DNA from: an uncultured Thermoleophilia bacterium
GTDB taxonomy: Bacteria; Actinomycetota; Thermoleophilia; UBA2241
DNA length: 64,000 nucleotides
Assembly (NCBI GenBank): GCA_963702475.1
Contig: CAVPCT010000006.1
Span: 1 to 64,000 of the forward strand
Direction of reading: 5' to 3'
The notes beneath the pieces are model-generated. The model ran no database searches, was not told the DNA's origin, and saw only the letters and a program-made list of their open reading frames with translations. Position numbers and translations under genes: made by a program. Below are positions 3 through 49,020 of the stretch, piece by piece; the stretch's first letter is position 1, and every line of letters starts with the position of its first letter.

Positions 3-1439
3 AAGAGCGGCGGCTTCAGGCTCGAGGTGTTCACCGACGACGAGCTGCGCGAGATCCACCTCGCGACGCTGGAGGTCCTCGGAGAGACCGGTGTCTTCGT
101 GGAGGACGCGGAGGCGCAGGACATCTTCGAGGCGGCCGGCGCCGAGGTCGACCGCGACAAGCAGGTGGTGCGCATCCCTGCGCACCTCGTGGAGGACGCG
201 GTCCGCTCGGCGCCGCCCAAGGTCGTGCTGTGCGGCCGCGATCCCGCCCGCGACGTGGTGCTCGAAGACGGGCGCGTCGGCTTCACCAACTTCGGCGAGG
301 GCATCCAGGTCGTCGACCCGTACAGCGGCGAGCTGCACGAGTCGCTGAAGCAGGACGTCGCCGACTGCACGCGCCTCATCGACGCCCTGCCGGAGATCGA
401 CGTCGTGGAACGGCCGCTTGGCGCCCACGACGTGCCGCAAGACGTGGCCGCCCTGCACAACGCTGAGGCCATCTTCAGCAACACGACGAAGCACGCGACG
501 ATCGGGCCGCTGACCGGTTTCTGCGCGAAGAAGATGATCGACATGGCGGCGGCCATCGCCGGCGGGCATGCAGGGCTCCGCCGCCGGCCCATCCTCTCGT
601 TCCTCACCTGCCCGGTGAGCCCGCTCAAGCTGGTCGACGACGTCTGCCGCATCATCATCGAGGGCGCTCGCGCCGGCGTGCCGGTGAACGTGCTCTCCAT
701 GGCCATGGCCGGCGGCTCGTCGCCGGTGAGCCTGGCGGGGACGCTGGTCGGCCACAACGCCGAGGTGCTCGGCGGCATCACGCTGGCGCAGCTCACGAAG
801 CGCGGCGCGCCGGTCATCTACGGGTCGTCCACCACGGCCCTGGACCTGCGCTTCGCCAGCGCCTCCGTCGGCAGCCCCGAGTGCGGCATGATCGGCGCCG
901 GCGTCGCCTGCCTGGCGCGCTACTACCTGCTGCCCAGCTGGGTCGCCGGTGCGTAGGGCGACTCCAAAGTCTCGGACGCCCAATCCGGCCACGAGAAGAC
1001 GATCACCAGCCTGCTGCCGGCATTGGCAGGGGCCAACCTGATCTACGGGCTGGGGATGCTGGAGTCGGGCGTCACGATCGATTACGCGCAGCTCGTCATG
1101 GACGCGGAGTTCGCGCGCATGGTGAAGTACTGCGTGCCGGGCATCCCGGTGACCGACGCCACGCTCTCCGTGGACGTCATCGCCGAGGTGGGGCCGTTCA
1201 GCGACTTCCTCGCGCACCAGGACACCTTCAACGGCATGAGGACGCAGTCCAGCAGCAGGCTCATCGACCGCCGGGTCCGCGAGGAGTGGGCCGCCGACGG
1301 GTCGTCGACGCTGTACGACCGCGCGCTCATGGAGGCGCGCCACATCCTCGAGACGCACCGGCCGACGCCGCTGCCAGACAGCGTCGCTGCAGAACTTAAG
1401 TCGATTATCGCTGCCGCGGAACGAGAAGTCGGCGTGTAA
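3..1439 (+). CDS. mttB: Pyrrolysine-containing trimethylamine:corrinoid methyltransferase (5' end outside window; in-frame TAG at 954-956)
   Basis: ORFs 27-956 and 1023-1439 share a frame separated by one TAG. Readthrough gives LPSWVAGA-O-GDSKVSDAQSGHEKT...GANLIYGLGMLE, matching the Pyl motif of MttB. Frame is open from position 3 and ends in TAA. Confidence 0.93.
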
Positions 1440-1591: not shown

Positions 1592-3028
1592 ATGGCAGAG
1601 AGCAGCAGAGAGATCGGCACCGGCTTCGTCTCCTTCCTGAGCGACGAGCAGAAGCGCCGCGTCTACGAGACGGCGCTCGGCATCGTCGCCGACATGGGCA
1701 TGGTCGTCCTGCACGAAGAGGGCGAGCAGGTCATGCTCGACGGCGGCTGCACCAAGGACGCGGACGGTCGCGTGCACGTGACGCGCGCCCTCGTCGAGCA
1801 GGCGCGCGCGTCGGTGCCGTCGAGCTTCGTGGTCTACGACCGCGACGGCGCGCCGGCCATGGACCTCGGCGGCCGGCGCTCCTACTTCGGCAACGGCTCA
1901 GACGTCATGCACCTGCACGACCTGGAGACCGGCGAGCGCCGCCTCGGCCGCCTGTCCGACGTCGCCGAGGCGGCCCGTCTGTGCGACGCGCTGCCCGAGA
2001 TCGACTTCGTCATGTCGGGCAGCTACCCCGACGGCATGGACGCGAAGGAGGCGTACCCGCGCCAGTTCCGCGCCATGATCCCGGCCACCACCAAGCCGCT
2101 GGTCATGACGGCCGGCGGCGTGGAGACCGTGGAGCCCATGTGGCGGATGGCCTGCGAGGTCCGCGGCGGCGAGGCCGCCCTGCGCGAGAAGCCGTACTTC
2201 ATCATGTACAACCAGCCGGTCACGCCGCTCAAGCACCCGTTCGAGACCGTCGACAAGCTGCTCTTCTGCGCCGACAAGGGCGTGCCGAGCACATACTGCC
2301 CGTCACCGGTCGCCGGTGGCACCGCGCCGATCACCACCGCCGGGCAGATCACGCTGGGGGTGGCCGAGGCACTGTTCGGCCTCGTCCTGCACCAGCTGCG
2401 GGCGCCGGGGGCCCCGTTCGTCATCGGGCAGGGCCCCAACACGCTCGACATGGCCACTTCGCAGTCGTCGTACAACTCGCCGGAGTTCGTGCGCGCCTAC
2501 GCCTGCGAGGTGGAGATGGCCAAGTGGCTGGACATCCCCAACTGGGGCTTCGCCGGACACACCGACGCACAGGTGGTGGACGCCCAGGCCGGTATGGAGG
2601 CCGACGAGCTCATCAAGCTCTCCATGCAGCTGGGCGCCAACCTCAACCACGACGTCGGCTACATGGACTTCGGGCTCTCCGGCTCGCTCGCCGAGGTCGT
2701 CCTGGCGGCTGAGTTCATCGCTCGTGACCGGCAGCTGCTCGCCGAGATCGAGGTCTCGGACGAGACGCTGGCCGTGGACGTGATCGCGGCCGTCGGCCCG
2801 GGCGGCGACTTCCTCGGCCAGCGGCACACGCGGCGCCACCTGCGCAGCAGCCAGTGGCGCAGCAAGCTGCTGAACCGCGCCAGCTACGACCGTTGGTACG
2901 CGGGCGGCGCGACCGACGCGACCGAGAAGGCGCGTCTGCGCGCGCTCGAGCTGCTGAAGACCCACGAGGCCCCGGCGCTCGACGCTGGCCTCGTTGCGCG
3001 GCTCGACGCGGTGGTGCCATCGCGCTGA
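1592..3028 (+). CDS. Non-Pyl MttB-family methyltransferase (His at the Pyl-equivalent position)
   Basis: AGGAG RBS before ATG 1592; MttB-like throughout (LCDALPEIDF, GGTAPIT, IPNWGFAGHTDAQVVDAQAG, VGPGGDFL). Confidence 0.88.
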   Translation: MAESSREIGTGFVSFLSDEQKRRVYETALGIVADMGMVVLHEEGEQVMLDGGCTKDADGRVHVTRALVEQARASVPSSFVVYDRDGAPAMDLGGRRSYFGNGSDVMHLHDLETGERRLGRLSDVAEAARLCDALPEIDFVMSGSYPDGMDAKEAYPRQFRAMIPATTKPLVMTAGGVETVEPMWRMACEVRGGEAALREKPYFIMYNQPVTPLKHPFETVDKLLFCADKGVPSTYCPSPVAGGTAPITTAGQITLGVAEALFGLVLHQLRAPGAPFVIGQGPNTLDMATSQSSYNSPEFVRAYACEVEMAKWLDIPNWGFAGHTDAQVVDAQAGMEADELIKLSMQLGANLNHDVGYMDFGLSGSLAEVVLAAEFIARDRQLLAEIEVSDETLAVDVIAAVGPGGDFLGQRHTRRHLRSSQWRSKLLNRASYDRWYAGGATDATEKARLRALELLKTHEAPALDAGLVARLDAVVPSR

Positions 3029-5997: not shown

Positions 5998-6125
5998 GGG
6001 CTCGGTCGTCTCCTGTGTCGGTCGTCGGTGCGGCCGTGTCGCTCGGCCATGGCGTCTTGTGGGCCTTCCCGCTCGCCTCCGGCTCGTCTCGTGCGGCAGG
6101 GGCGCTTCCGCATGGTACGACATCC

Positions 6126-6477
6126 GCCGGCGCGGGCGATCCCCACGGGATGCACAACGCCCACGCTCAGTCTGCGGGCATGGGCGGTATGCGGACCGCC
6201 GGAGACCTGGTGGCGCGCATGCAGATGACCCGCGGCTTGAGGTTCCAGGAGGCGAAGGAGTACGTGGCCGGGATGCTCGGAGTCACGCCCCTCGACCTCA
6301 GCGACCCAACGGTGATGACCGACGTGCGCGACGAGCTCGGGCGGGGGAGGATCCACAGCTACGCCATCAGCACGCCGGCTTCAGGCCGACTCTTCCGAGG
6401 CCAGGTCCACGATCGCCCGGGCGCTGGACGTGCCCGCCAACTGCCTGGAGAAGTCCGGGGAGCGGGCCGGGATCTGA
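6126..6477 (+). pseudogene. mtbB: C-terminal remnant of dimethylamine methyltransferase MtbB, frameshifted
   Basis: AGAGDPHGMHNAHAQSAGMGGMRTAGDLVARMQMTRGLRFQEAKEYVAGMLGVTPLDLSDPTVMTDVRDELG matches the post-Pyl part of MtbB; a second frame continues EARSTIARALDVPANCLEKSGERAGI* (TGA 6475-6477). Confidence 0.85.
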
Positions 6478-10455: not shown

Positions 10456-11286
10456 TCAGAACTCCGGCGGGAGCTCCTTCATCTGCGTCGCCGTGAAGAC
10501 GGGCCCGTCCTTGCAGACGTACACGGGCCCGATGTTGCAGCGCCCGCACTTGCCCAGGCCGCACTTCATGCGGTTCTCGAGTGTGGTGAAGATGGTGTCC
10601 TCAGCGAAGCCGAGCTTCTCCAACACCGGCAACGTGAGCTTGACCACGATGGGCGGGCCGCAGAGCACGGCCACCGCGTTGTCGGCCTTGGGCGCTGTCT
10701 TCTCGACGACCGGCGTGACGTAGCCGACCTCGCCGGTCCAGTCGTCGGTCTGGCCGCCGGGGTCGACGGTAGTGACCATCTTGACATCGGAGCGCGAGGC
10801 CCACTCCTCCAGCTCGCGCTTGTACACCAGGTCGCCGACGCTGCGCGCTCCGTACACGATGGTGACGTCGCCGAACTCGTCGCGACGGTCCAGCACGTTC
10901 CAGATGACGCAGCGCACCGGCGCCAGGCCGATGCCGCCGGCCACGAACACGACGTCCTTGCCCTTCCAGTCGTCGACCGGGAACCAGTTGCCGTACGGTC
11001 CGCGAAAGCTCACGGTGTCGCCCACGTTGGCCTCGTGCAGGGCCGTGGTGACCTTGCCGATGGACTTGAAGCTGCACTCGATGTAGCCCTCGCGCGTGGG
11101 CGAGCTGGCGATGCAGAAGGTGCTCTCTCCGGCGCCGAAGATGCCGTACTCGCCGAACTGGCCCGCCTTGAAAGTGAAGGACGAGCGGAAGGACTCGTCC
11201 TGGAACTCCAGGCGCAGCGTGCGCGTGTCGGAGGTCTCGTCGATCATCTCGACGACGGTGGCGAGCTGGGGCTGATAGATGTTCAC
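10456..11286 (-). CDS. flxA: FAD/NAD-binding flavin oxidoreductase subunit
   Basis: FKAGQF, RGPYGN, AGGIGLAP, LCGPP and MKCGLGKCGRC...CKDGPVF 2Fe-2S motif; GTGA overlap. Confidence 0.88.
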   Translation of the reverse strand: MNIYQPQLATVVEMIDETSDTRTLRLEFQDESFRSSFTFKAGQFGEYGIFGAGESTFCIASSPTREGYIECSFKSIGKVTTALHEANVGDTVSFRGPYGNWFPVDDWKGKDVVFVAGGIGLAPVRCVIWNVLDRRDEFGDVTIVYGARSVGDLVYKRELEEWASRSDVKMVTTVDPGGQTDDWTGEVGYVTPVVEKTAPKADNAVAVLCGPPIVVKLTLPVLEKLGFAEDTIFTTLENRMKCGLGKCGRCNIGPVYVCKDGPVFTATQMKELPPEF

Positions 11287-12416
11287 GAGGCAGCCTCCGC
11301 GACGCGCGGACGGCGGGCCGCGATGTCGATCTCCTGAAGGATCTCCACCAGGTCCTGGCCGGCGTGGCACACGCGCGTGCAGCGCCCGCAACCGGTACAG
11401 AGGACCTCACCGAACTTGAGCGGGTAGATGGAGAACTTGTGGTTGATGCGCTGGCGATAGCGCACGTGCTGGTTGTCGCGCGGGTTGTGGCCGCTGGCGT
11501 GCAGCGTGAACGTCGGCGCCTGGCAGGTGTCCCAGCAGCGCCGCCGGGAGCCGCTGCCCACGCCCTCGACCTCGTCGATGATGTCGAAGCAGTGGCAGGT
11601 GGGGCACACGCCGGTGCAGGCGCCGCAGCCGTTGCAGCGCATGGCGAGCTGTGCGAGCAGCGGGTCCTCGAAGTGCGTCGCGATCCAGTCGCGCACGGAA
11701 CCCGCGTCGATCTCGAGGTTGGCGGCCACCGTGGCCCGCGCGGTCTCGCGCTGTCCGGTGGCCTGAGCGTCCAGCTCCTTGGCCACCTTGTCCGAGAGGC
11801 GCGCCTTGTGGGCCTCGGCCAGGGCGCGCCCCTTCTCGGTGGTCACCTCGAGCAGGAACCCGCCGTCGACCGGCGTGAGCAGGCCGTCGGCGCCCTTGGT
11901 GTCGTCCGGCGCCGCGCCGACGGCGGTGCAGAAGCAGCTGTCGTCGATCACCGGGCAGGCGAGGTTGATGATGGTGGTGGCCTCGCGACGCCCGTTCCAG
12001 AGCTCGTCCTGGTAGTCCCAGTTCATGACCTGGTCCACGACGGCGAGGCCGGCGGCGTCGCAGGGCTTGGCGCCGACGACGACGCGCGGCGCGAACGTGG
12101 TCGCGACCTCGAACACCTCGATGGTCGTGCCGCGCTGCTTCCACGAGCACAGCACCTCGTGCTCGGGCAGGAAGTAGCCCTTGAGCGACAGCTGCGGCAG
12201 GCCGCGGCTCAGGTCGAGCTGGGCCGCTTCGGTCAACGGGGTGTAGTCGATCTCCACGGCCTCCGCGCGGTCCAGCCGGCAGGCCGAGGCGGCGATCGCC
12301 GACGGCGACTGACAGATGTCGGTGGCGACCGGGGCGATGACCTCAGTGCCCGCGGCCAGCAGGTCTCCTGTGAGGCCGCGCAGGTCTTCCGTGCTGATGA
12401 AGTACCTGTCGCTCAT
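11283..12416 (-). CDS. flxB: AsrA-like 4Fe-4S subunit
   Basis: KPCD, CFC, CNGCGACTGVCPTCHCF, RRRCWDTC and CTGCGRCTRVC motifs; operon position. Confidence 0.85.
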   Translation of the reverse strand: MSDRYFISTEDLRGLTGDLLAAGTEVIAPVATDICQSPSAIAASACRLDRAEAVEIDYTPLTEAAQLDLSRGLPQLSLKGYFLPEHEVLCSWKQRGTTIEVFEVATTFAPRVVVGAKPCDAAGLAVVDQVMNWDYQDELWNGRREATTIINLACPVIDDSCFCTAVGAAPDDTKGADGLLTPVDGGFLLEVTTEKGRALAEAHKARLSDKVAKELDAQATGQRETARATVAANLEIDAGSVRDWIATHFEDPLLAQLAMRCNGCGACTGVCPTCHCFDIIDEVEGVGSGSRRRCWDTCQAPTFTLHASGHNPRDNQHVRYRQRINHKFSIYPLKFGEVLCTGCGRCTRVCHAGQDLVEILQEIDIAARRPRVAEAAS

Positions 12417-13336
12417 TTGATGAACTCCTGCTGGTCGTCGAGACGGTAGTCGCCGATGGGCGCCGGTTTCTCCGGGTCCTCGGACACGACGTAGTCGTAG
12501 CGGTCGCGCACGATGTGCTGCAGCTTGCGGTTCACGAGGCTCAGCGGGATGCCGACCGGGCAGAACCGCTCGCACTCGCCGCAGTCGACGCAGCGTCCCG
12601 CGAGGTGCAGGGCCCGGGTGACGTTCCAGCTGAAGTTGCCGCGGGGGTGGGACGAAGGCTCGATCCACTGGGGCTGCGTCTTCTCCACGATGCAGCGCTC
12701 GCAGATGCAGAGCGGGCAGACCTGCCGGCAGGCGTAGCACCTGACGCACTTGCTGAACTGCTCCGTCCAGAACGCCCAGCGCTCCTCGAGCGGCAGCGCG
12801 TCGAGCTGGGCGACGCGGTCGTCGATGGTCATGACGGGCCGCGGTGGCTCGGGCTGGGTCTCACCGACGATATGGTCCACGTTGTTCGGCTCACGGATGT
12901 CGCAGCCAGAGCACCGAGGCGCCACGTTCTCCTCGGTGAGGGCCAGGGCGGCGGGCAACTCGTTCTCCTCGAGCACGCCGCCGCAGCGCACGCCGATCAA
13001 CACGACGTGGCCCGGTTCGATCTGCTTCTCTCGCAGCAGGCCGGCGACCGCCTTGACGTCGCAGCCCTTGACGACGAGACCGATCTTGCCGAGTTCCTGC
13101 ACGTGGTCGCGACGGGGGTTCAGATAGGTGACCAGGTTGTGCACGCAGCGTGTGTCGAAGATGAGCTTGTCGGCCGCGGCCGGGGACGTGATGAACACCG
13201 GGCGCGCCCCCCTGCGGCCGTCCTCCCAACCGACGATGACGCGCACGTCGCCGGCCTCGAGCAGCTCCCGGGCGATGCGGCGCAGCTCGGCCACGCCGGT
13301 GTACTCCGGCGCCTGGACCATGGTGGCTGCGCTCAT
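12413..13336 (-). CDS. flxC: 4Fe-4S subunit of the Flx complex
   Basis: VKGCD, CVRCYACRQVCPLCICERC and HLAGRCVDCGECERFCP motifs; ATGA overlaps. Confidence 0.82.
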   Translation of the reverse strand: MSAATMVQAPEYTGVAELRRIARELLEAGDVRVIVGWEDGRRGARPVFITSPAAADKLIFDTRCVHNLVTYLNPRRDHVQELGKIGLVVKGCDVKAVAGLLREKQIEPGHVVLIGVRCGGVLEENELPAALALTEENVAPRCSGCDIREPNNVDHIVGETQPEPPRPVMTIDDRVAQLDALPLEERWAFWTEQFSKCVRCYACRQVCPLCICERCIVEKTQPQWIEPSSHPRGNFSWNVTRALHLAGRCVDCGECERFCPVGIPLSLVNRKLQHIVRDRYDYVVSEDPEKPAPIGDYRLDDQQEFIK

Positions 13337-13845
13337 CGGGCCTCCCCTCCGCCGCTCGCGACTGGCGCGGCCGCGGCGGCTTCGGCCGGGGCGGCTTCCG
13401 CCGGCCAGCTCTCGACGGCGTCGGGCGCCAGGGCGCGATAGGCGTCGAACGGGCCGAGTCCGCGCACGTTGGCGACGGTCTCGTTCACCACGTCCTTCCA
13501 CTTGGCGCCCTCGCTGGCAGAGACCCAGCTGAAGGTCATGCGGCCCGGGTCGATGCCCATGAACTCCATGAAGTCGTGGAACACGGCGAAGCGCCGGCGG
13601 GCGTGGTAGTTGCCCGAGGTGTAGTGGCAGTCGGCCGGGTGGCAGCCGCTGACGATGACGCCGTCGGCGCCGCGCTCGAACGCTTTGATGATGAAGAGCG
13701 GGTCGATGCGTCCCGTACAGGGGAGGCGGATGAGTCGTACGTTGCTCGCCATGTGCAGGCGGCTGGTGCCGGCCAGGTCGGCGCCGGTGTAGGTGCACCA
13801 GTTGCAGACGAAGGCCGTGATGCGGGGTTCGAAGTCGTCGCTCAT
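13333..13845 (-). CDS. flxD: MvhD-like 2Fe-2S subunit
   Basis: FVCNWCTYTGADLAG, PCTGRID, GCHPADCHY and WVSASEG motifs. Confidence 0.9.
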   Translation of the reverse strand: MSDDFEPRITAFVCNWCTYTGADLAGTSRLHMASNVRLIRLPCTGRIDPLFIIKAFERGADGVIVSGCHPADCHYTSGNYHARRRFAVFHDFMEFMGIDPGRMTFSWVSASEGAKWKDVVNETVANVRGLGPFDAYRALAPDAVESWPAEAAPAEAAAAAPVASGGGEAR

Positions 13846-13853
13846 GTTGGCCG

Positions 13854-15881
13854 TCACTCCCACGCGCAGAGCGCGTTGATCTCGCTGTAGACCTGGTCGT
13901 CGGTGAACGTCTCGAGCTCCACGCTGTTGCTCAGGCACACCGCCTCACAAGTGCCACAGCCCTGGCACACGCCGGGGTTCACGTAGGCCATGTGGCCGCA
14001 GACCTGGCCGTCCACGGTGCAGACCTCGCGCTGCTCGATGGCGCCGTAGGGGCAGACCAGCGCGCAGCGCATGCAGCCGATGCAGGTCTGCTCGTTGACC
14101 ACGGCCACGGCCGGCTCGCGCTCGAGCTCGTCGGCGCTGAAGAGCGCCATCACCTTGGCGCCGGTGGCGCTGGCCATGGCCACAGCGTCGGGGATGTCGC
14201 GCGGCGCCTGGCAGGCGCCGGCCACGAAGACGCCGGCGGTGTTGGTCTCCACGGGCCGCAGCTTGGGGTGCGCCTCGTTGATGAAGCCGGCCGAGTCGAC
14301 GCTCACGCTGAGCTTCTGGGCCAGCTCCTTGACGCCGTCGTTGGGGCGCATGGCCGTGGCCAGCACCACCATGTCGGCGTCGATCACCACCTGCTCGCCG
14401 GCGATGGTGTCGTAGCCCCACACCTTGACCGTGTCGCCGTCGCGGAAGATGCGGCTCACGCGTCCGCGGACGTACTCGGCGCCGTCCTCCTCGATGGCGC
14501 GCCGGCTGAACTCGTCGTAGCCCTTGCCGTTGGCGCGGATGTCCATGTAGAAGGCCACCGCGCGGCCGTCGTGCACCTTGTGCTTGTAGAGCATGGCGTG
14601 CTTGGCGTTGTACATGCAGCAGATCTTGCTGCAGTACGCCATGCCCTTGTCGGGGTCGCGGGAGCCCACGCAGTGGACGAAGACCACCGTCTTGGGCTCC
14701 TTGCCGTCGGACGGCCTGAGGATGGCGCCCGCCGTCGGCCCGCTGGCCGAAGCCAGGCGCTCGAACTGCAGGCCGTCGATGACGTCCGGCACCTCGCCGT
14801 ACCCGTACTCGCCGTAGCCCTTGAGGCCCTCGGGCTGGTCGCGACCGATGTCGTAGAGCTTGTAGCCGGTCGCCACCACGATGGCCCCGACCTGCTCGGT
14901 GACGAACTCGTCCTCGGTGTCGTAGTCGATGGCGCCCTTGAGGCAGGCCTCCTTGCACTTGCCGCAAGCGTCCTTCTTGAGGCCCTTGCGGCGGCCCTTG
15001 AACAGGGTGCAGTTCTCGCGGTCCAGCACCGGCTGGTTGGGCACGGCCTGCGGGAACGGCACGTAGATGGCCGTGCGGTTGCCCAGACCGGCCTCGAACT
15101 CGCTGGGGATCTTCTTGGAGGGGCAGACGCCGAAGCAGTCGCCGCAGCCATTGCAGAGGTCCTGGTCCACGCTGCGCGCCTTCTTGCGCACCGTGACCTC
15201 GAAGTTGCCGATGTAGCCGTCGACCTTCTCGACCTCGCTCCAGGTGTAGAGCTTGATGTTGGGGTGCTGGTAGGCCTCCACCATGCGGGGCGTGAGGATG
15301 CACTGTGAGCAGTCGAGCGTGGGGAAGGTCTCGCTCAGCTGGCTCATGTGGCCGCCGATGGAGGCCTCCTTCTCCACGAGGATGACCTCGTGCCCGCCGT
15401 CGGCGATGTCCAGCGCCGCCTGGATGCCGGCGATGCCGCCGCCGATGACCAGGGCACGTTTGGTGACGGGGATCTTGATGGTCTCGAGCGGCCGGTTGTG
15501 CTTGACCTTCTCGATGATCGTCCGGCCGATGTCGATGGCCTTGGCGGTGGCTTCTCCGCGGTCCTCGTGGATCCAGGAGCAGTGCTCGCGGACGTTGGCC
15601 ATCTCGCACATGAACTTGTTGAGCCCGGCCTGGTCGCAGGCGCGGCGGAAGGTCTTCTCGTGCATGTGCGGCGAGCAGGCGGCCACGACGACCCCGGTGA
15701 GGTGGTTCTCCTCGATGGCCTTCTTGATGAGCTGCTGGCCCGGGTCCGAGCACATGTACTTGTAGTCCTCGGAGTAGGCCACGCCCGGGTGGTCCTTGAG
15801 GGCCTCGGCGACCGCGGCGCAGTCGACGGTGCGGGCGATGTTCTCGCCGCAGTGGCAGACGAAGACGCCGATGCGGCTCAT
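13854..15881 (-). CDS. hdrA: Heterodisulfide reductase subunit A
   Basis: IGVFVCHCG, YMCSDPGQ, REHCSWIH, GGGIAG, TFPTLDCSQC, CVGSRD and YCSKICCMY motifs plus ferredoxin motifs; all Cys, no Sec. Confidence 0.96.
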   Translation of the reverse strand: MSRIGVFVCHCGENIARTVDCAAVAEALKDHPGVAYSEDYKYMCSDPGQQLIKKAIEENHLTGVVVAACSPHMHEKTFRRACDQAGLNKFMCEMANVREHCSWIHEDRGEATAKAIDIGRTIIEKVKHNRPLETIKIPVTKRALVIGGGIAGIQAALDIADGGHEVILVEKEASIGGHMSQLSETFPTLDCSQCILTPRMVEAYQHPNIKLYTWSEVEKVDGYIGNFEVTVRKKARSVDQDLCNGCGDCFGVCPSKKIPSEFEAGLGNRTAIYVPFPQAVPNQPVLDRENCTLFKGRRKGLKKDACGKCKEACLKGAIDYDTEDEFVTEQVGAIVVATGYKLYDIGRDQPEGLKGYGEYGYGEVPDVIDGLQFERLASASGPTAGAILRPSDGKEPKTVVFVHCVGSRDPDKGMAYCSKICCMYNAKHAMLYKHKVHDGRAVAFYMDIRANGKGYDEFSRRAIEEDGAEYVRGRVSRIFRDGDTVKVWGYDTIAGEQVVIDADMVVLATAMRPNDGVKELAQKLSVSVDSAGFINEAHPKLRPVETNTAGVFVAGACQAPRDIPDAVAMASATGAKVMALFSADELEREPAVAVVNEQTCIGCMRCALVCPYGAIEQREVCTVDGQVCGHMAYVNPGVCQGCGTCEAVCLSNSVELETFTDDQVYSEINALCAWE

Positions 15882-16951
15882 GCGTCACCTCCTGCGTCGG
15901 TGGTAGGTCCGGAGCCGGCGTCGGCGGCCACGGCGGCCGGCTCGGCCTCCTTGGCGGCCGCGGCGGCCTTCTGCTTCTCCGCGCGAGCCGCCGCCTTCGC
16001 CGCGGCCTCTTCCTTGAGCCGCTTCTCCTCGACGGCGCGCGCCTCGGCGCGCCGGAGCAGGGCGGCCAGGAACGGCTCGGTGTCCACGAAGTGGCGGGCC
16101 AGGCCCAGGTCCACCGGCGAGAGGCCGAGCGCCAGGCCAACTACCTGGGTCACGAACAGGATGGGCATGGGCTCGGCCCCGCGCTCGGCCATGGCGGCCT
16201 GGCGCAGGTCGAGGTTGGAGTGGCACAGCGGGCAGGCCACCACGATGGCCTCGGCGCCGTGCAGGCGGGCGTTCTCGATGATGGCGCGGCCCAGCCGCAG
16301 CACGGAGCCGGTGCGACTGATGCTGAATCCACCGCCGCAGCACTCGACCTTGTAGTCCCACTCCACGGCCTCGGCGCCGCAGGCGGCCACGATCTCGTCC
16401 ATCGACATGGGCTGCTCGGGGTCGTCGTAGCCGCAGACCTCCGCGGGGCGCACGAGCAGGCAGCCGTAGTAGCTGGCCAGCTTGACGTCCTTGATGGGGT
16501 TGGGGGGCGAGAGCTCGGCGGCGACGCCCTGCTCGATGTCGGGGATGAAGGACTTCAGCATCGTGAGGGCGTTGTGCACCTCGACGGTGTTCTTGAACGA
16601 GCGCCCGAGGATGTCGGGCATCTGTTCAGCCAGGCCCTCTTCTTCGGCCACGGCGAGGCGCGCCGCCGCCAGTCGGTTGTAGCAGGCGGCGCAGGGGGCG
16701 ATGACGTCGGCGAACCCCTGCGACTCGGCCATGGCCAGGTTACGGGCCGGCAGCGCGACGCCCAGAAGGTGATCTGTGGTGTGGCCGCTGCTGGCGCCGC
16801 AGCAGTTCCAGTCGGTGACCTCGGTGAGGCCCACGCCGAGCTCGGCGGCCACGGCGCGCAGGCTCTCGTCGAACTCCCGCGAGGTGCCGTGCAGCGAGCA
16901 GCCGGGGTAGTAGGCGTAGTCGGTGAGGCGTTCGGTCGCGACGGCGCTCAT
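15878..16951 (-). CDS. hdrB: Heterodisulfide reductase subunit B
   Basis: YYPGCSL, WNCCG, PCAACY, YYGC, ECCG and ACPLC (two CCG domains); Ala/Lys/Glu-rich tail. Confidence 0.94.
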   Translation of the reverse strand: MSAVATERLTDYAYYPGCSLHGTSREFDESLRAVAAELGVGLTEVTDWNCCGASSGHTTDHLLGVALPARNLAMAESQGFADVIAPCAACYNRLAAARLAVAEEEGLAEQMPDILGRSFKNTVEVHNALTMLKSFIPDIEQGVAAELSPPNPIKDVKLASYYGCLLVRPAEVCGYDDPEQPMSMDEIVAACGAEAVEWDYKVECCGGGFSISRTGSVLRLGRAIIENARLHGAEAIVVACPLCHSNLDLRQAAMAERGAEPMPILFVTQVVGLALGLSPVDLGLARHFVDTEPFLAALLRRAEARAVEEKRLKEEAAAKAAARAEKQKAAAAAKEAEPAAVAADAGSGPTTDAGGDA

Positions 16952-17487
16952 GGCGTCACCCCGCACTTCTGGAAGATACGCTGGATCTCGGCGACGCCCT
17001 CGATGCGATCGGGACGCACACCGAGCTTGCCGCGCAGGAACATGGCGGGCGCGTTGGTGACGTCTTTCATGAGCTCACCGCTGCGCAGCTTGTACTGCAT
17101 GACCATGCCGACCTCGTGCAGCCGCCCGTTGGTGCGGATCTGATCGAGGAAAGCCTTGTGGAACGCCGCGATGGAGCGGGGCATGTCGGCGGCGCCGGCC
17201 TCGATGCTGATCTCGCGAAGCTGGTCGATGACGCGCGCCGGATCACAGGCGTTGGGGCAGCGCGCCGAGCAGGTCTCGCAGGTGAGACACAGCCAGATGG
17301 ATTGGTCGTGGAGGGCCTGCTCGCGCCTGTCCTGCATGACCAGGCGCATGACGTTGTGCGGCCGCAGGTCCGACTCGGACGCCATGGGGCATCCGGCCGA
17401 ACACTTGCCGCACTGGTAGCAGGTCGCCGCGTTGACGCCTGTGGCCTCGCGGATCTCCGATACTAGGGTGCGGTGAGATGCGCTCAT
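16948..17487 (-). CDS. hdrC: Heterodisulfide reductase subunit C
   Basis: CYQCGKCSAGCP and IWLCLTCETCSARCP motifs. Confidence 0.94.
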   Translation of the reverse strand: MSASHRTLVSEIREATGVNAATCYQCGKCSAGCPMASESDLRPHNVMRLVMQDRREQALHDQSIWLCLTCETCSARCPNACDPARVIDQLREISIEAGAADMPRSIAAFHKAFLDQIRTNGRLHEVGMVMQYKLRSGELMKDVTNAPAMFLRGKLGVRPDRIEGVAEIQRIFQKCGVTP

Positions 17488-45785: not shown

Positions 45786-46178
45786 ATGACCGCACAAGGA
45801 TCCCCACGGGGCCTCATCGCCTGCCCTCCCCACGAGTTGCACGAGGTGGGACCGCGCCTGCTCGTCGACGCGCTCGAGGCCGACGGTTGGGAGATCGACT
45901 TTTTCGGGGTGAGGACGCCGCTGACGAAGGTCGTCGCGGCGGTCCGCGAGCGTCGCTCACGGTTCATCGGCTTGACGTGCGCCATACCGAGGAACCTCGA
46001 CGGCCTCAGGGACACGATCCGCGACCTGCGCGACGATCTGGGCGCGGCGTGCCCGCCGATCATCGTGGGCGGCAGCGTGTTCCGCGGCGACCCGGACCGG
46101 TGGAAGGAGTCCGGCGCGGACCTGTTCGCGCCGGACCTGGACGCCGCCGTCGAGCTGCTGCGCGCGTACAAGGGGTAG
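45786..46178 (+). CDS. Stand-alone cobalamin-binding domain protein
   Basis: ELHEVG (ExHxxG), FFG..TP and IIVGG motifs; GGAGG RBS; ends TAG. Confidence 0.78.
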   Translation: MTAQGSPRGLIACPPHELHEVGPRLLVDALEADGWEIDFFGVRTPLTKVVAAVRERRSRFIGLTCAIPRNLDGLRDTIRDLRDDLGAACPPIIVGGSVFRGDPDRWKESGADLFAPDLDAAVELLRAYKG

Positions 46179-47565: not shown

Positions 47566-49020
47566 GTGCGCCTCTACTCACGACTCGACGACGCACAGTG
47601 CGAGCGCCTGCACGAGGCCACGCTGCGGGTGCTCGCGCGGACCGGGCTCATCGTCGACGAGCCCGAGGCGCTCGAGCTGCTGAAGCGCGCGGGCGCGGAC
47701 GTGGATGGCACGCGGGTGCGCATCCCCGAGCGCCTCGTCGCCTGGGCGCTGGAACTGGCGCCGCGCGAGGTGACGCTGTACGGGCGCGGCGGCGAACCGG
47801 CCCTGACCTGTGGGGGCTACGAGTACTCCTTCGGCGCCGGCAGCGACTGCATCGAGTGCTGGGACCACCGTACCGGCGAGCGGCGCAGGGCGCTCCTCTC
47901 CGACGTCGTCGACGCCGCCCGCGTGCAGGACGCCTGCGAGCACCTCGACTTCGTGATGAGCCTGTTCACGCCGAGCGACGTGACGCCGGAGGCCATGGAC
48001 CGGCACCAGATGGCGGCCATGCTGCGGAACTCGACCAAGCCCGTCGTGTACGTGACCCTCAACGATCTGGACGCCCATCTTGACGTCACGGAGATGGCGG
48101 AGGCGGTGGCGGGCGGGCCGGACGCGCTCGCCGCCCGCCCGCTGGTCGCCTGCTACAAGAACACGCTGTTCCCGCTCGTGCACAACCGGGAGGCCGTGCG
48201 CACGCTGCTCGACCTGGCGGGCAGGAACCTGCCGTGCATCTACAGCCCGGTGAGCACGGCCGGCACGGTGGCGCCGATGACCGTGCTCGGCTCGACCGTG
48301 GTCGTCAACGCCGGCGTGCTCGCCGGCCTCGTGATGGCGCAACTCAAGCGCGCCGGAGCGCCGTACATCGCCATCGGCTGGGCCGGCGAGGCGCTGGACA
48401 TGCGCACCATGGTCGACATCTTCGCGTGGCCCGACCACCGCGCCGTGTACTCGAGCCTGCTGCACTGGTACGGCCTGCCGATGTGGACGCTCGGCGGCGT
48501 GACCGACAGCAAGCTGCCCGACCAACAGGCCGCCGCCGAGGCGGCGCTCACCCTGCTCGCCGACGCCGTGAGCGGCGGCCACATGATCCACGACATCGGC
48601 TTCATGGAATCGGCCTTCACAGGGTCGCTGACGCAGGTCGTGCTGTGCGACGACATCGCCGGCTGGGTGAAGGCCTTCCTGAAGCCGGTGGAGATCACCG
48701 ACGAGGAGCTCGGCCTGGATGTGATCGACGAGGTCGGGCCCGGTGAGCTCTTTTTGAAGCACAAGCACACGCGGGCGCACGCACGCGACCGCTGGCAGCC
48801 GCAGGTGTTCGACCGGCGCTCGCGCGAGGAGTGGCTGGCGGGCGCGGCCGGAGGGCCTGCGGTCGCCGGCCCGACCGGCGGCCTGGACGCCACAGCCGTG
48901 GCCGCCGCCCGCGTGGACCGCATCCTGGCGGAGCACGACGTACCCTCGCTGCCGCCGATGATCGACGCGGCCATCGAGGCCGTGATCGCGCGCGCCGAAG
49001 CGCGCGCCCGCACGGCCTGA
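47566..49020 (+). CDS. Non-Pyl MttB-family methyltransferase (Val at the Pyl-equivalent position)
   Basis: RLHEATLRVL..TG, AGTVAPMT, LDMRT, LPMWTLGGVTDSKLPDQQA, IHDIGFMES and VGPG motifs. Confidence 0.88.
   Translation: MRLYSRLDDAQCERLHEATLRVLARTGLIVDEPEALELLKRAGADVDGTRVRIPERLVAWALELAPREVTLYGRGGEPALTCGGYEYSFGAGSDCIECWDHRTGERRRALLSDVVDAARVQDACEHLDFVMSLFTPSDVTPEAMDRHQMAAMLRNSTKPVVYVTLNDLDAHLDVTEMAEAVAGGPDALAARPLVACYKNTLFPLVHNREAVRTLLDLAGRNLPCIYSPVSTAGTVAPMTVLGSTVVVNAGVLAGLVMAQLKRAGAPYIAIGWAGEALDMRTMVDIFAWPDHRAVYSSLLHWYGLPMWTLGGVTDSKLPDQQAAAEAALTLLADAVSGGHMIHDIGFMESAFTGSLTQVVLCDDIAGWVKAFLKPVEITDEELGLDVIDEVGPGELFLKHKHTRAHARDRWQPQVFDRRSREEWLAGAAGGPAVAGPTGGLDATAVAAARVDRILAEHDVPSLPPMIDAAIEAVIARAEARARTA

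Follow-up and report, generated by a model that had tools for sequence, protein, structure and literature searches.

How can a methyltransferase gene with a stop codon in its reading frame be intact? The window (the whole stretch of 64,000 nucleotides analysed here) is the start of contig C6 of a genome assembly, G000, and it opens with an mttB frame which has no start codon and is cut by a TAG. A preliminary description of this DNA proposed that the TAG encodes pyrrolysine (Pyl) and that the organism uses this residue to demethylate trimethylamine. The answer that we find probable as a whole is that the frame encodes a Pyl-containing MttB which demethylates trimethylamine, in a setting of Pyl biosynthesis, corrinoid proteins and the Wood–Ljungdahl pathway. 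Statements taken from published sources concern the accessible parts of these sources.

The mttB frame and its internal TAG

The frame 3–1439 (+) contains one internal stop, the TAG at 954–956, as the preliminary description had claimed, and it ends with a TAA (1437–1439). The 22 codons between position 957 and the next callable start (TTG, 1023) open with GDSKVSDAQSGHEKT, as also reported. The read-through product has 478 codons inside the window and scores 733.8 bits against TIGR02369, the curated equivalog cut-off of which is 525 bits. In the alignment with the MttB of Methanosarcina barkeri (E 1.5e-121, residues 3–474), the TAG falls on residue 334 (written K in 7xcm and X in 7xcl); the conserved Asp follows two residues later. 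This is the Pyl column, where the TAG had been placed.

A model of the protein, built from a 95-row alignment with Lys in place of Pyl, has a pLDDT of 97.2 and the TIM-barrel fold of MttB; it was used instead of a single-sequence AlphaFold prediction, which was useless (pLDDT 38). The best fold match is M. barkeri MttB (7XCL; TM 0.97, rmsd 1.4, 46% identity). The glycine betaine methyltransferase MtgB from Desulfitobacterium hafniense (2QNE/9YCE; PMC13080624), which is also corrinoid-dependent and has the fold of the MttB superfamily, ranks behind (TM 0.93, rmsd 2.0, 30% identity) and has a Leu at the Pyl column.

The gene had been called otherwise intact. This is correct in that there is only one TAG, but the gene is incomplete in the window since it runs off the contig at its 5' end. 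A Shine–Dalgarno-like site, an ATG, ten codons and one base are present on the reverse strand of G000:C4:1-31. These codons match the N-terminus of P0002, a database protein (328 residues) with 97% identity, and mttB continues in frame if the reversed C4 abuts C6 without a gap. From the sequence and the gene order of relatives, we infer that the whole mttB lies across the C4/C6 join and encodes 489 residues. The gene is almost certainly a real, intact Pyl-type mttB, despite its broken look; public protein sets mostly carry it as a truncated protein of 327 residues.

Table 1. Positions of the features discussed in the text. Bare numbers are positions in the window; other coordinates carry the name of the contig.
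Feature	Position	Strand	Basis or remark
mttB, Pyl-type trimethylamine:corrinoid methyltransferase (probable)	3..1439	+	TIGR02369 score, fold, 5' end on C4
In-frame TAG, probable Pyl codon	954..956	+	residue 318 in the window, 329 in the whole gene
Gly98, equivalent to M. barkeri Gly110	294..296	+	alignment to M. barkeri MttB
Met233, equivalent to M. barkeri Met249	699..701	+	alignment to M. barkeri MttB
Trp313, at the carboxylate-binding Arg312 of MtgB	939..941	+	alignment to 9yce, presumed numbering offset of 2
Tyr348, equivalent to M. barkeri Tyr364	1044..1046	+	alignment; MtgB has its carboxylate-binding His here
Second MttB-family gene, non-Pyl, His at the Pyl column	1592..3028	+	PF06253; TIGR02369 313.5 bits, under cut-off
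Lrp/AsnC regulator	C4:1594-2136		
pylB, pylC, pylD	G000:C3:637.8-641.0 kb		
pylT, tRNA-Pyl(CUA)	G000:C3:641046-641118		ARAGORN, 73 nt; 50 bases behind pylD
pylSn	G000:C3:642189-642515		
pylSc	G000:C3:657644-658501		

Conservation of the codon

That the gene is a pseudogene, with a nonsense mutation or a sequencing error at the TAG, is extremely unlikely. Such a reading could build on the indel-type breaks seen in several genes of the assembly, including the adjacent mtbB, and on a corrinoid gene which has an unrelated TAG and a frameshift. However, the sequence past the TAG is conserved, the genome has a full pyl set, and the same codon recurs at the same column. Of 68 read-through frames of the MttB family in the genome, 60 reach the Pyl column and 15 have a TAG precisely at this column; 13 of these are intact and 2 carry a frameshift. 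Any other TAG in these frames is at a C-terminus, precedes the matched part or, in one case, belongs to a copy with a frameshift. In all 31 best-match loci that were fetched (30 from other genomes and one G000 paralogue), this codon reads TAG. Of the 120 best database homologues, 78 stop at the residue just ahead of the Pyl codon, and so do 23 of 149 distant cluster representatives. This conservation across paralogues, loci and database homologues leaves practically no room for a sequencing error or decay, and it bears out the TAG as the identity of the codon.

None of the sequencing runs contains half of the words searched for (the best fraction is 0.34). Two contigs from RNA libraries, from relatives that are about 94% identical, span the TAG; since only 40 of 186 differences are among those listed and DNA carry-over is possible, no claim on expression, habitat or codon identity is made from them.

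The pyrrolysine machinery and the meaning of TAG

The nine contigs of the assembly (93.8% completeness, 6.5% contamination) all have a GC content of 69.5–70.9%. The preliminary description called for a search of the genome for pylT, pylSc, pylSn and pylBCD: all are present, though on contig C3 and not on the contig of mttB. The five proteins pass their curated cut-offs, which are given in parentheses: PylB scores 437.8 bits (348.2), PylC 323.8 (248.3), PylD 209.6 (150.05), PylSn 126.5 (51.15) and PylSc 314.3 (178.15). The tRNA-Pyl folds into a cloverleaf (z -2.6) with a 5-base D loop, a long anticodon stem and a short variable loop; we take the short D loop, the long anticodon stem and the short variable loop to be hallmarks of tRNA-Pyl. 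Rfam gave no tRNA match on the pylT stretch and nothing useful around it. The preliminary description had reasoned that a TAG off the Pyl column, a genome devoid of pyl genes or reads with a sense codon would contradict a Pyl-type MttB; the TAG is on the column and the pyl set is complete. Insertion of Pyl at this UAG can be predicted with high confidence.

A tRNA-Sec is also encoded (G000:C3:167171-167268), and in-frame TGA codons occur in genes at C4:386919 and C6:283914, which, judging from their motifs, are presumably formate-dehydrogenase-like and peroxiredoxin-like. The presence of tRNA-Sec besides the Pyl system makes it likely that the organism uses 22 amino acids.

TAG at the Pyl position is found in 15 mttB, 10 mtbB (9 by motif plus one) and 1 mtmB, i.e., about 26 Pyl sites. 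Together with the possibility that the pyl genes are constitutive, this number could suggest that TAG is recoded genome-wide, either to Pyl, as in the archaeal genetic code 34 (10.1101/2024.09.30.615893), or to a standard residue. We consider this very unlikely, because TAG ends 581 of 3951 called genes (14.7%, a figure from a crude gene caller in which Pyl-truncated frames are counted). It also ends 10 of 34 genes in the S10-spc-alpha cluster, including EF-Tu and SecY; their C-termini look normal, and reading through these TAGs would add tails of up to 337 codons. The pylD gene itself ends in TAG. Back-up stops after TAG are not enriched (median tail of 72.5 codons versus 69 for TGA, p 0.07), and tRNA-Pyl is the only CUA tRNA found in the genome. 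Finally, a comparison of paralogues across TAG junctions, which covers the genes with paralogues in this genome, revealed no convincing Pyl site outside methylamine methyltransferases. In this test, 23 of 491 junctions gave a match: 15 mttB, 1 mtmB and 7 others. TAG in this genome is thus ambiguous (mostly a stop, and Pyl in methylamine methyltransferases) and not recoded. In code 34 TAG is likewise decoded as Pyl but, according to the accessible part of the source, all TAGs are sense codons, in contrast with the situation described here.

The 7 other matches were rejected as Pyl proteins: they are gene junctions, a duplicated repeat and a frameshifted corrinoid gene. The latter (G000:C9:221584-221958), with an in-frame TAG and a frameshift, is read as a pseudogene or an assembly error. 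A coding-score scan for TAG read-through was discarded, as it could not tell read-through from in-frame neighbouring genes. A G follows 20 of 22 Pyl codons, compared to 182 of 476 TAG stops; it was not taken as a signal, since the conserved next residues explain it.

Active site and substrate

In M. barkeri MttB (7XCL/7XCM/7XCN), Gly110 and Tyr364 hold a water molecule on the imine of Pyl334, Met249 moves upon binding of MttC, and the Y364F substitution decreases the Vmax from 48 to 1.7 per min (PMC9842639). The three residues are kept in the mttB of the window, which differs by a Glu in place of Thr111, next to the glycine. MtgB binds the carboxylate of its substrate with Arg312 and His348 (PMC13080624); this pair is absent here, replaced by Trp313 and Tyr348, and the TAG occupies the Pyl column.

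Gly110 is called 100% conserved in the accessible part of PMC9842639. On the contrary, it is kept in only 15 of the 30 Pyl rows of our alignment; Pyl copies without it are encoded at G000:C3:301201 and in the C5:332173 region. Tyr364 is kept in all 30 Pyl rows, compared to 18 of 39 close non-Pyl rows.

Trimethylamine is the likely substrate of this copy, as judged from its residues, its score and its gene context. It is rather unlikely that UAG is read as Pyl here but that the enzyme acts on another methylated amine (tertiary or of the diamine type), with the paralogues sharing out substrates. This reading would account for the 15 Pyl-mttB copies, which are 39–70% identical to the present one, for the absence of Gly110 in half of the Pyl rows, and for the location of several copies among amine transporters and dehydrogenases. 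But the copy at the start of the window keeps Gly110, Met249 and Tyr364, it is one of the best TIGR02369 scorers of the family among the matches listed, and its widespread orthologue usually lies behind mtbB, which is the layout expected for the conversion of trimethylamine to dimethylamine. The identities of the Pyl paralogues to this copy (39–70%) are such that trimethylamine use should not be assumed for all of them. The proposal that the organism uses Pyl to demethylate trimethylamine thus stands as regards Pyl, given the column, the pyl genes and tRNA-Pyl, and becomes a likelihood as regards the substrate.

Probable operon and genomic neighbourhood

In relatives, the gene upstream of the mttB orthologue has as its best match the mtbB that opens contig C4. 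Among 21 mttB orthologues of 83–88% identity, the upstream gene is mtbB in 16 cases, a corrinoid gene in 4 and a regulator in 1. In 7 of 21 close relatives, the gene after the Pyl-mttB is an orthologue of the second MttB-family gene of the window, and this second gene probably shares an operon with mttB. The sequence and these relatives point to the order Lrp/AsnC regulator, Pyl-mtbB, Pyl-mttB and non-Pyl mttB across the C4/C6 join. In this assembly, the upstream mtbB is broken by one frameshift. No corrinoid gene is adjacent to this mttB copy.

Several other features of this region deserve mention. An orphan C-terminal piece of mtbB (window 6120-6362, +; PF09505 positions 355–432) starts just past the Pyl site and, without its upstream half, is probably a remnant. 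The third MttB-family gene of the window (47566-49020, +) is non-Pyl, with a Val at the column, and a lone B12-binding domain is encoded nearby (45837-46178). On the minus strand, window 10456-17487 holds hdrC-hdrB-hdrA-mvhD-like genes, then three Fe–S/flavin genes which we take to resemble flxCBA; they would likely form an electron-bifurcating Hdr–Flx complex. The region G000:C4:1-240000, which would directly precede the window, contains about half of the MttB-family genes of the genome, along with genes for transporters and for amine oxidation. The final 1500 bases of C6 are identical (100%) to C7:86-1585, so that these two contigs overlap.

Proposed pathway and fate of the methyl groups

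The gene content is consistent with the following scheme. The tRNA-Pyl(CUA) would be charged by the split PylSc and PylSn with Pyl made by PylBCD, and Pyl would be inserted at UAG in competition with termination. Trimethylamine would be bound by the imine of Pyl, assisted by the Gly/Tyr pair, and a corrinoid protein would accept the methyl group on its Co(I), which a RamA-like activator would keep in the reduced state. The resulting dimethylamine would be taken by the Pyl-MtbB encoded just upstream (contig C4), and methylamine by a Pyl-MtmB encoded elsewhere in the genome. A pterin-binding methyltransferase would then pass the methyl to tetrahydrofolate, from which it may feed the Wood–Ljungdahl pathway, for acetyl-CoA synthesis, oxidation or both. 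Both the corrinoid partner and the methyl fate are deductions.

The preliminary description advised a search for upstream corrinoid and ramA genes. The genome has 27 corrinoid-domain matches and RACo/RamA-like genes at three places, but none of them adjoins this mttB. A complete mtmB/mtbB/mttB cluster with corrinoid genes is found at C9:301-318 kb. CODH, ACS, the CoFeSP subunits, two pterin-binding methyltransferases and MetVF are encoded in the genome, and Fhs is present according to an HMM search. Motif scans of the genome for Fhs, FolD, Pta and RnfC returned no match; as they missed the Fhs that the HMM detects, they are uninformative. With methyltransferase, corrinoid and Wood–Ljungdahl genes, the degradation of trimethylamine to ammonia, with the methyls entering the pathway, is possible in principle. 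An hdrA-mvhD-metV-metF-hdrC-hdrB-like cluster occurs at G000:C5:560925-568992; its gene order is presumably the layout of acetogens.

Distribution in the lineage and relation to known systems

Among 25 relatives of PylSc (64–73% identity), 19 are titled Thermoleophilia, 4 Actinomycetota or Actinomycetes, 1 Deltaproteobacteria and 1 Zixibacteria. The title of one of them (67%) names UBA2241, an order of Thermoleophilia (PMC7438021). From these record titles, the organism likely belongs to the class Thermoleophilia, and we infer the order UBA2241. The 16S gene is located at G000:C8:615-2165.

In a sample of the class, pylSc was detected in 51 of the 55 genomes from the organism's own family, in 9 of 55 from a second family and in none of 190 from ten others. 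In a sample of the phylum, it is found in 2 of 401, G000 and one genome of the second family. In a family sample of 61 genomes, an mttB scoring above the TIGR02369 cut-off occurs in 57, and all the best matches listed carry the TAG; pylB is found in 53 and acsB in 38, and these family counts come from kin that are not independent, a miss in an incomplete genome not being an absence. Two small, 98%-complete genomes of the genus (G002 and G014) jointly lack pylSc, pylB, mtbB, over-cut-off mttB and acsB. G044 (94% complete) has pylSc and one TAG-containing mtbB (G044:C12:21680-23035), and mttB and pylB were not found in it: it is possibly a Pyl scavenger, or there is a gap in the assembly. G110 (93% complete) has five mttB matches, some with a TAG, and neither pylSc nor pylB was found in it. 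The two PylSc recorded as Zixibacteria (L095) and Deltaproteobacteria (L086) are 65–71% identical to that of G000, and no mttB over the cut-off was found in the genome behind L095. Their placement may result from transfer, mis-binning or mislabelling.

The preliminary description held that Pyl is little documented in Thermoleophilia-like actinobacteria. It is right in that the mentions are brief, two table rows and one sentence in the accessible parts of the sources on the same class or phylum, but PylRS has been listed and expression is in print. Guo et al. counted two actinobacterial PylRS genomes (PMC9630628, 2022; repeated in PMC11764691), and their supplement lists the PylSc of a Thermoleophilia bacterium (MBE0528218.1) and ADurb.BinA094. 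Ellenbogen et al. (PMC10805028, 2024) reported that some Actinobacteriota MAGs from Stordalen Mire expressed Pyl-mttB and mtbB. They named Bog-752 and RBG-16-64-13 as active methylotrophs, and their supplement places Bog-752 in family UBA2241. The trait is therefore already on record for the lineage and its chemistry is known, so the novelty is modest. The count of about 60 genomes with pylSc in two families, versus two actinobacterial PylRS genomes in the accessible part of the 2022 survey, points to bacteria that compete with methylotrophic methanogens and have been overlooked, and to a source of PylRS/tRNA pairs with high GC. Since gene callers cut Pyl genes in two, trimethylamine use by this lineage is easily missed.

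Unlike M. barkeri, the host is a bacterium, with a split PylSc and PylSn and 15 Pyl-mttB copies, and the methyl should go to tetrahydrofolate and the Wood–Ljungdahl pathway rather than to CoM and methane. A comparable bacterial system is that of the dichloromethane-fermenting Peptococcaceae bacterium DCMF (PMC6778437), which also has pylT, pylSc, pylSn, pylBCD, the Wood–Ljungdahl pathway and Sec. Its MttB family is likewise greatly expanded (82 mttB) and partly of the Pyl type; of its 96 methylamine methyltransferases, 23 have Pyl. DCMF is a Firmicute with 46% GC, whereas the present organism is an actinobacterium with 70% GC. The latter has, in a genome of 4.3 Mb, about 60 genes of the MttB family and about 26 sites for Pyl, and it shares the trait with its whole family.

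Paralogues with and without pyrrolysine

Two G000 paralogues (54–56% identity) have a Leu (CTC) at the Pyl column. They are encoded at G000:C4:42524-43951 and C4:59946-61394, each near Pyl copies, and one has a Phe at the Tyr364 column. In 37 full-length database homologues (50–60%), the residue at the Pyl column is Leu (17), Trp (14), Val (2), Ser (2), Ala (1) or Thr (1). Trees built with the Pyl column masked (92 and 51 rows) place the Leu and Trp rows inside the Pyl rows, and their well-supported branches force at least three changes at this column. The 92-row tree leaves out 24 of 38 distant paralogues of the genome and all truncated proteins, the 51-row tree a further 41 long, odd or near-duplicate rows. 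Because one single Pyl clade remains compatible with the data in an AU test (p 0.164) and the trees contain no archaeal or firmicute Pyl-MttB, repeated loss of Pyl to Leu or Trp among MttB paralogues is only suggested.

A wider scenario can be put forward tentatively, as a possibility that we hold to be weaker than its alternatives: Pyl would be near-universal and probably ancestral in this uncultured, anaerobic family of Thermoleophilia, Pyl-MttB would have radiated to substrates other than trimethylamine (half of the Pyl rows being devoid of Gly110), and Pyl would have been replaced repeatedly by Leu or Trp, with Tyr364 relaxed. If true, a single genome would supply natural pairs of 55%-identical enzymes, one with Pyl and one without, for testing the role of Pyl.

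A literature search, with most subscription papers outside its scope, returned no paper on the family-wide extent, a paralogue survey, the operon or Pyl loss in MttB. The family-wide extent, the divergent Pyl paralogues and the Leu/Trp variants nested among Pyl enzymes (a nesting that is not statistically secured) are possibly new.

A non-Pyl MtmB has recently been reported to act on tetramethylammonium and choline (PMC13044021). Four non-Pyl MtmB homologues are encoded in the genome (G000:C5:571055, C4:65301, C9:248475 and C2:42577), at least three of them beside a corrinoid gene.
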